Shown here one piece after another: positions 1 to 338 of a stretch of DNA of 338 bases (the first letter of the stretch is position 1; each line of letters opens with the position of its first letter). Below the pieces are notes generated by a model, which was given only the letters and a program-made list of their open reading frames with translations, searched no databases and had not been told where the DNA came from. The translations under genes and the position numbers were made by a program. Origin of the DNA: Escherichia coli (GTDB lineage Bacteria > Pseudomonadota > Gammaproteobacteria > Enterobacterales > Enterobacteriaceae); NCBI RefSeq assembly GCF_003334305.1, contig NZ_QOWS01000084.1. One strand, 5' to 3'.

Positions 1-338
1 GTCTCCCGCCCCTGCGCATCCTTCTGACTGACCAGTTGCCCACGCGGGTTATAACTGCTGTAAGTGCTGATGCCTTCTTCCCGGTGAACGGCGATTTGTT
101 GACCGTACCGGTCATACTCATACCGCGTCGTGTACCCCGAGCAGTCCGTGAAGGCCAGCAGCTGACCGTAACGGCTCCATGCCATCTGTTTTGTACTGCC
201 CGTCGCATCCTCTATCCCTGTCGGCAGCTCACTCGCCGGGTCATCATAGCTGTACCGCATCGTCTCACCGCTGCGCGAGGTCTCCGCCGTCAGCCTTCCC
301 TTCTCATCATACTCCCGGCTGCTGCGAAGCCCGTCCGG
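1..338 (-). CDS. Internal fragment of an Rhs-family / YD-repeat protein core (polymorphic toxin scaffold); partial at both ends
   Basis: Minus-strand frame with codons at + 338..3 has no stop in 112 codons; the other two minus frames were not translated. Translation contains the YD-repeat signatures REYDEKGRL, RYSYDDP, RYEYDRYGQQI and YSSYNPRGQL at regular spacing. G-rich coding strand (hand count on + strand: C=123, G=82) and Arg/Gly/Tyr/Asp/Thr-rich composition fit Rhs cores. In-frame ATGs (+ 258-260 and 183-185) are internal Met codons with YD repeats on both sides, not starts. Paralog cannot be assigned from 338 bp, so no gene symbol is given. Confidence 0.9.
30..317 (-). repeat. Five consecutive protein-level YD (RHS) repeat units, period about 63-69 nt
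   Basis: Repeat cores on + strand coordinates (read on minus strand): 288-317 REYDEKGRLT; 222-257 RYSYDDPASELP; 150-179 WSRYGQLLAF (degenerate, W in the aromatic position, no D); 90-125 RYEYDRYGQQIA; 30-65 TYSSYNPRGQLV (N in place of D). Aromatic anchor residues fall at protein positions 10, 31, 54, 75, 96, i.e. spacings of 21, 23, 21, 21 residues. Similarity is at the amino-acid motif level; the nucleotide sequences of the units are divergent. Confidence 0.75.

Follow-up and report, generated by a model that had tools for sequence, protein, structure and literature searches.

The GC-rich core of an Escherichia coli Rhs gene at a type VI secretion locus: a composition that is probably old, inherited and slowly decaying

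Introduction

The 338 nt of Escherichia coli DNA analysed here (the window, meaning the whole stretch) raise the question of why a coding segment should be markedly GC-rich and asymmetric between its strands in a host of ordinary composition, and whether such a composition is foreign, required by the encoded protein or kept up at the locus. The initial annotation had stated that enterobacterial Rhs cores are more GC-rich than their host genomes and that this has been read as evidence of foreign origin. The GC-rich Rhs core with its AT-rich tip was reportedly described by the Hill laboratory in 1990-1998 and is said to have been textbook material since. It was revisited by Jackson et al. in 2009, where three core subfamilies are given with their names (PMC2935791), and introduction from a high-GC source has been stated for the GC-rich cores (PMC7259588); both points of the initial annotation are present in the literature. 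High GC with a G-rich coding strand is an ordinary finding, since it has long been described for this gene family, and the GC-rich core with AT-rich tip is already known. The analysis has little weight as a discovery; what is useful are clarifications on the sources of the GC, its lineage, its age, the skew by subfamily and the mosaicism of alleles.

Identity of the window

The + strand of the window contains 123 C, 82 G, 83 T and 50 A, giving a G+C content of 205/338 (60.65%), and the counts in the initial annotation (205 G+C, C=123, G=82, about 61%) were reproduced exactly. On this strand the GC skew was -0.20 and the AT skew -0.25, with a binomial p of 0.005 for the imbalance of G and C; the minus strand is G- and A-rich, with 61% purine. 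Frame 0 of the minus strand is open from end to end and encodes YD repeats, which identifies the minus strand as the coding strand and confirms that the coding strand is the G-rich one. Matches of 100% were found in several to many E. coli chromosomes, always within a gene annotated as 'RHS element core protein', and the translation covered positions 488-599 of the NCBIfam model NF041261 RHS_core (E=2e-62, 211 bits), in agreement with the earlier suggestion of an Rhs core on the minus strand. The window represents residues ~489-601 of a 1,409-aa RHS core protein and holds three YD repeats, the third partial (Table 1); TIGR01643 matched residues 10-50 of the window translation (E=1.4e-17 for the window). 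It thus codes for YD repeats belonging to the shell-forming core of a polymorphic Rhs toxin of E. coli, and the encoded segment is predicted by homology to be part of the beta-cocoon shell wall. A source averaging ~60% GC and a frame outside an rhs gene were both excluded for the matching E. coli records. An Rfam search of the window for structured RNA gave only a chance-level match (E=0.82), a search for DNA repeats found just two short two-copy repeats, and a homologous-protein search with the 112-aa window translation returned almost exclusively short E. coli fragments.

Table 1. Features located in the 338-nt window (positions in nt; residues refer to the window translation)
Feature	Position	Strand	Detail
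RHS element core CDS, internal fragment	1..338	-	codons from nt 338 down to 3
YD (RHS) repeat, residues 10-49	192..311	-	Pfam PF05593 RHS_repeat, i-E=1.7e-6
YD (RHS) repeat, residues 55-89	72..176	-	Pfam PF05593, i-E=8.7e-8
Start of third YD repeat, cut by the edge, residues 96-111	6..53	-	Pfam PF05593, weak, i-E=0.11, model positions 1-16 only

The gene and its locus

In strain 214-4 (locus L001) the window lies at nt 15001-15338, within a 4,230-nt CDS at 12573-16802 on the minus strand. The full protein scored 2635 bits against NF041261 RHS_core over model positions 1-1261 (curated cut-off 2000), matched TIGR01643 with E=6e-49 and contains 20 YD dipeptides. Outside the window, in the same CDS, the Rhs-associated core domain TIGR03696 was matched at residues 1181-1258 (E=6e-24), as was Pfam RHS PF03527, and DPLGL of the PxxxxDPxGL core/tip boundary motif stands at residues 1254-1258. 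The N-terminus (MGGKPAARQGDMT...) looks PAAR-like by eye. The core has a GC content of 63.9% and the last 630 nt of the gene, the AT-rich tip, 41-47%; the drop past DPxGL is abrupt, to 47% and then 41% in the last two 300-nt bins. A Pfam search of the 151-aa C-terminal tip (L001 12573-13028) gave no match. Downstream of rhs is a 169-aa sel1-repeat ORF (L001 11995-12504, 37.6% GC), which from its position is presumed to be the immunity gene for the putative Rhs toxin tip.

The gene order in 214-4 is tssB... / hcp - vgrG - RHS - sel1-repeat ORF - ISAs1 remnants - yafV - ivy - fadE, with tssB, C, E, F, G, tagH and tssJ annotated in RefSeq beside hcp - vgrG - RHS, and the order hcp - vgrG - RHS is repeated in five other strains and in E. 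albertii. The Rhs protein of the window is T6SS-linked, its putative toxin presumably being delivered by the type VI secretion system. The locus is 'position 1' of Jackson et al. 2009, at 240.5 kb on strand 'F' in K-12 coordinates (PMC2935791).

Strains differ at this position. In 214-4 tssF, encoding a component of the T6SS baseplate, is split by the IS66-family element ISEc23 (L001 23152-27544), so that the adjacent T6SS may not work and delivery of the Rhs protein may fail in this strain; an IS interrupts tssF in strain 602687 (L062) as well. Closely related cores at position 1 of other strains carry differing tips and downstream ORFs (dsORF-h1, YdcD), which is classic tip displacement, and some strains have two tandem Rhs cores there (L060 1813-13773; L066 9837-17899). 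Several core genes are frameshifted or contain internal stops (strains a15, O103:H2 129 and WP4-S18).

Composition relative to the host

Whether the window is a compositional outlier had been made dependent on the host: it would be one if the host were near 50% GC, and unremarkable if the host were near 60%. Sampled host DNA has a GC content of 50.2-50.7% (50.7% in the 30-kb locus without rhs, 50.2% in a 200-kb sample of the same chromosome), and the outlier claim holds. Against a background of 4,484 windows of 338 nt (mean GC 50.2%, sd 6.75), drawn from 230 kb of a matching E. coli chromosome without rhs, the study window has a z of +1.55. A GC content of at least 60.65% was reached by 2.5% of background windows, mostly in lambdoid prophage tail genes, an absolute GC skew of at least 0.20 by 3.8% and an equally large purine bias by 0.9%, while GC and skew were both reached by a single one (1/4,484, 0.02%). 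Measured over its first 3,600 or 3,774 nt, the core has 63.5-63.9% GC and a GC3 of 0.76-0.77, both above all 127 background genes. Within its own gene the window is low in GC (14th percentile; core mean 64.0% over 338-nt windows), and the true compositional outlier is the sustained GC plateau of the 3.6-3.8 kb core.

Sources of the GC excess

One explanation for such a plateau would be that high GC just follows from the amino acids (Gly, Arg, Asp, Tyr, Thr) of the YD-repeat beta-cocoon. This was examined by rewriting the same protein with the codon frequencies of 52 E. coli genes (52.1% GC). With E. coli codon usage the window is expected to have 55.0% GC and the core 57.1%, against 60.7% and 63.9% observed, and where a GC3 of 0.56-0.57 is expected, the window has 0.71 and the core 0.77. 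Amino acids do contribute: Arg, Gly, Thr, Tyr, Glu, Pro and Asp are over-represented and Ile, Lys, Asn, Phe and Leu under-represented, GC2 is 0.50 compared with 0.41 in typical E. coli genes, and the amino-acid share of the GC excess is ~34% in the window and ~42% in the core. The excess is therefore about 40% amino-acid composition and about 60% synonymous sites.

The same rewriting gave an expected coding-strand skew of +0.040 for the window and +0.034 for the core, against +0.206 and ~+0.136 observed. The skew is almost wholly a matter of codon choice, namely of CGG, GGG, ACG, GCG, GTG, CCG, GAG and the Ser codon AGC (Table 2), and AGG makes up 13% of Arg codons in the core. Fourfold sites that are conserved within the subfamily carry 60.5% G, 21.5% C, 10.3% T and 7.7% A on the coding strand.

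Table 2. Share of selected codons within their amino-acid families
Codon	Rhs core	Reference genes
CGG (Arg)	44%	11%
GGG (Gly)	32%	15%
ACG (Thr)	57%	29%
GCG (Ala)	67%	35%
GTG (Val)	70%	36%
GAG (Glu)	68%	33%
AGC (Ser)	56%	27%

The codon-aligned antisense frame is also open throughout the window (3-338, + strand), within an open stretch of 225 codons (L001 14673-15347), the antisense of the whole rhs gene having 17 stops in 1,410 codons. The frame is open because the sense codons TTA, CTA and TCA are rare (2%, 5% and 6% of their families), and an overlapping antisense gene was rejected in favour of a shadow ORF.

Relatives and distant hosts

A scan of one genome per species with conserved core peptides gave 49 loci. 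Several 'MAG' or other-phylum contigs whose rhs fragments are 70-93% identical were left out as probably contaminated by enterobacterial DNA. Six short contigs (L013, L016, L019, L028, L034 and L037), assigned to MAGs of Oscillospiraceae, Lentisphaerae, Collinsella and Bacillota and to assemblies of Streptomyces and Jeotgalibacillus, hold rhs fragments with 70-93% protein identity to the E. coli core and are almost certainly enterobacterial contamination or mis-binned.

In 12 distant hosts (from Bacillus, Clostridia, Tenericutes, Chitinophaga, Chloroflexota and Pseudomonas) the GC of the YD-shell gene minus that of its flanks was -0.001 +/- 0.033 over a GC range of 27-69%, and across 16 clean loci YD-shell gene GC followed host GC with r=0.95. 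The E. coli rhs excess of +0.13 lies 4 sd outside the distant-host spread. Among relatives an excess was found in E. albertii (+11.8 points), Citrobacter youngae (+9.7), Pseudocitrobacter (+7.2), an Erwinia MAG (+6.3) and Serratia silvae (+5.8), and none in the rhs genes of Trabulsiella and Buttiauxella. The excess is thus lineage-specific and not general to YD-shell genes, and since these genes track host GC elsewhere it reflects enterobacterial lineage history and not a requirement of the fold. Homologous YD-shell genes occur at 27-38% GC in Tenericutes, Bacilli and Clostridia, and this comparison, taken with the codon rewriting, which falls well short of the observed 61-64%, refutes amino-acid composition as sole cause and leaves that explanation with hardly any probability. 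A GC-rich donor was not found: outside Escherichia and close relatives, 0 of the 49 related loci combine ~77% GC3 with G3>C3.

Age at the locus

In its textbook phrasing the foreign-origin reading holds that E. coli acquired the core recently, by horizontal transfer from an organism of high GC. The literature states as much (PMC7259588), the composition and codon usage are atypical, as shown by CGG, GGG and AGG, and an ISAs1 (H-rpt) element adjoins rhs. However, E. albertii has an orthologue in the same order as E. coli, vgrG-rhs-yafV-ivy-fadE-lpcA-yafJ-dpaA-yafL-rayT, and dS between the two species is 0.268 for the core, as against 0.271 for fadE, 0.269 for dpaA and 0.292 for vgrG. The shared position and the flank-like dS argue against a recent import, as do the inference of Jackson et al. 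2009 (PMC2935791) that position 1 is older than E. coli and the wide distribution of the core family, present in 3,818 of the 5,426 complete E. coli genomes. The two species have a core GC3 of 0.76 and 0.77, and between them dN/dS is 0.21 for the core compared with 0.02-0.10 for the flanks.

A caveat applies to the dS comparison. In a neighbour-joining tree the E. albertii core (L010) nests inside the E. coli allele diversity of the subfamily, so that a flank-like dS is no proof of strictly vertical descent; the nesting could be due to trans-species allele lineages or to exchange between the species, and the placement is itself unreliable because the alleles are mosaic. A recent transfer from E. 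coli to E. albertii, with which the nesting is compatible, would revive the recent-import reading, which is nevertheless disfavoured and in our view improbable. 'Recently introduced' is the wrong wording for a locus that is syntenic in E. albertii, and what remains of the foreign origin mentioned in the initial annotation is that, if there was one, it is old.

Decay or maintenance of the composition

An alternative to simple inheritance is that the GC-rich, G-skewed composition is actively maintained in Escherichia, by GC-biased gene conversion (gBGC) in the course of frequent exchange between core alleles and paralogues, or by selection on DNA or mRNA. If true, Rhs cores would offer a natural test case for gBGC within the E. 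coli genome. Several observations are in its favour. Three subfamilies that are 22-28% apart in nucleotides all have 62-64% GC and a GC3 of 0.72-0.77; the core has been at the locus since before the E. coli/E. albertii split with GC3 still at 0.76-0.77; and recombination is frequent. An allele tree of 11 subfamily alleles, rooted with RhsD-type cores and analysed by parsimony at synonymous third positions, gave an implied equilibrium GC3* of 0.67 (CI 0.62-0.71) when unfiltered, whereas the flanking genes, polarised by E. albertii, gave 146:94 and a GC3* of 0.50 (CI 0.44-0.57), the difference being significant at P<0.001. C<->G changes made up 19% of the changes in rhs and 5.7% in the flanks. 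Taken at face value the tree suggests that GC is partly maintained in situ, but this is confounded by mosaic alleles, and even the unfiltered tree is non-stationary with a net loss of GC (226 S->W against 142 W->S changes, p=1e-5).

The extent of the mosaicism became apparent from a comparison of L001 13029-16802 with L059-L066 and L010. At one and the same locus the mean difference between core alleles is 8.5%, with a maximum of 15%, and that between flanking genes is 0.8-3.1%, and the variance/mean ratio of core differences per 150-nt bin is 8-14, which is strongly mosaic. One allele is identical to that of the window for 1,050 nt and then 22-30% divergent. Strain 214-4 has a private 150-nt patch at core nt 1801-1950 (L001 14853-15002, overlapping nt 1-2 of the window) that is 25-27% from all other sampled E. 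coli alleles, 17% from RhsD and 7% from E. albertii, a pattern suggestive of a short gene-conversion tract. The mosaic alleles seem to be at odds with the published statement that clade I cores recombine infrequently (PMC2935791).

Because the alleles are mosaic, many of the 'substitutions' in the tree are imports from other GC-rich cores, which confounds the GC3* estimate and accounts for both the C<->G excess and the apparent stationarity; substitution counts taken naively from trees of rhs cores cannot be relied on. A count limited to isolated singletons in bins without local recombination gave 21 S->W and 6 W->S changes, which rejects stationarity (p=0.006) and fits ordinary E. coli rates (0.756 expected from the flanks, 0.778 observed), albeit in a small sample of 27 polarised S/W changes, falling to 7-13 at stricter thresholds. 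Thus the tree-based signal of maintenance in situ (0.67 against 0.50) was gone after recombination filtering, at low power. Alleles that are at least 99% identical differ at ~4-11 sites and are largely clonal. At a per-lineage dS of ~0.13, simple amelioration toward a GC3 of ~0.57 predicts the loss of only ~6 GC3 points since the split, so that the persistence of the GC signal needs no special force, and active maintenance is accordingly regarded as unlikely.

There is thus no good evidence that the composition is actively maintained, and the simplest reading is that an inherited composition is slowly decaying while GC-rich alleles recombine with one another. The ancestral Rhs core would have evolved in a GC-richer background from which its composition was inherited, and would have entered the Escherichia lineage before E. 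coli and E. albertii split. It may now be losing GC slowly under ordinary E. coli mutation pressure, while recombination among GC-rich core alleles and paralogues may reshuffle the diversity. The window is part of a T6SS-linked Rhs core whose GC plateau was thus probably inherited from a GC-richer ancestral background and is probably old and slowly decaying.

Strand asymmetry

The strand asymmetry called 'strong' in the initial annotation is real in the window, being equalled by few background windows, but overstated at the level of the gene, as the coding-strand skew of the core (~+0.137) is matched or exceeded by 10 of the 127 background genes. The excess of G over C on the coding strand could be no more than the skew that replication or transcription usually gives a leading-strand gene. 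Judging by the sign of + strand skew in the sampled loci and by the 'F' orientation at 240.5 kb in K-12, the rhs gene is probably co-oriented with replication, and mean coding-strand skew is +0.088 for leading-strand and +0.028 for lagging-strand genes. Per site, C->T exceeded G->A and A->G exceeded T->C on the rhs coding strand, which is also in line with such an origin. At the fourfold sites of the core, however, the skew is +0.446 and the G fraction 0.58, exceeded by just 1 of 127 genes, and the G preference of the core is not seen in vgrG (sk3 +0.10) and hcp (+0.01), its co-oriented neighbours.

The skew is, moreover, specific to the subfamily. Cores of K-12 RhsA, RhsB and RhsC have a skew of +0.01 to +0.02 (sk3 -0.03 to -0.06, compared with +0.22 in the core of the window), whether on the leading (rhsC) or the lagging strand (rhsA, rhsB), those of RhsD and RhsE type have +0.08 to +0.09, and the subfamily of the window, presumably RhsG/H, has +0.11 to +0.155, both at its two loci and in E. 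albertii. Total GC is alike in all Rhs core subfamilies (61-64%) despite the differing skew. A replication- or transcription-associated origin is therefore unlikely as a full account of the G excess. Chi sites, as in a 'rearrangement hot spot' explanation of the G-rich strand, were also considered and rejected, since the rhs CDS contains none of the four present in the 30-kb locus. To our knowledge a subfamily-specific gradient of skew in Rhs cores has no published description; it is a small descriptive point.

Relation to known systems

RhsG and RhsH are said to have been recognised as the third Rhs core subfamily by Wang, Zhao & Hill in 1998 (J Bacteriol 180:4102), reportedly on a core ~22-29% from RhsA-B-C-F and RhsD-E, with RhsG near min 5.3 and RhsH in tandem with RhsE. 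The core studied here has 77.8% nucleotide identity to K-12 rhsD (22.2% divergent) and 72.5% to rhsA/B/C (27.5% divergent). At the pptA locus, cores 94-96% identical to it follow an RhsE-type core in tandem and have neighbours annotated dsORF-h1 and dsORF-e4. By divergence, map position and the tandem pptA copies it presumably belongs to the RhsG/RhsH subfamily, judged on the traits given above. By description, a vgr neighbour near fadE (position 1), a GC-rich core and an AT-rich extension are alike and nothing essential seems to differ. The G skew and mosaic alleles measured here are descriptive additions and not differences in kind.

K-12 RhsA-RhsD share a core of ~3.7 kb at 62-64% GC, the DPxGL boundary, a tip of 34-41% GC and a small downstream ORF, and their proteins are 72-77% identical to that of the window over the core, but, unlike the gene of the window, the K-12 copies do not lie beside a T6SS cluster. 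T6SS Rhs effectors of known structure, namely Tse5 of P. aeruginosa (8cp6), RhsA of P. protegens (7q97), an S. bongori Rhs (8qja) and Tse15 (8uy4), are homologous over the YD-repeat cocoon including the window region (E=5e-122 to 1e-61), the best matches covering that region being 8cp6 (E=5e-122) and 7q97 (E=1e-91). They resemble the protein studied here in their Rhs-associated core domain and DPxGL autoproteolysis region but are only ~30-35% identical to it. In two scanned Pseudomonas genomes, which are not the PDB source strains, rhs showed no GC excess, its GC being equal to that of the host in one strain (68.5-68.7% against 68.3-68.4%) and below it in the other (56.3% against 60.7%). The YD-repeat shell fold is also common to the TcB/TcC component of Tc toxins and to eukaryotic teneurin, which have other delivery systems and domain contexts and are distantly related; teneurin-like chains matched residues 534-669 (E ~1e-22), with a weak match to Pfam TEN_YD-shell.
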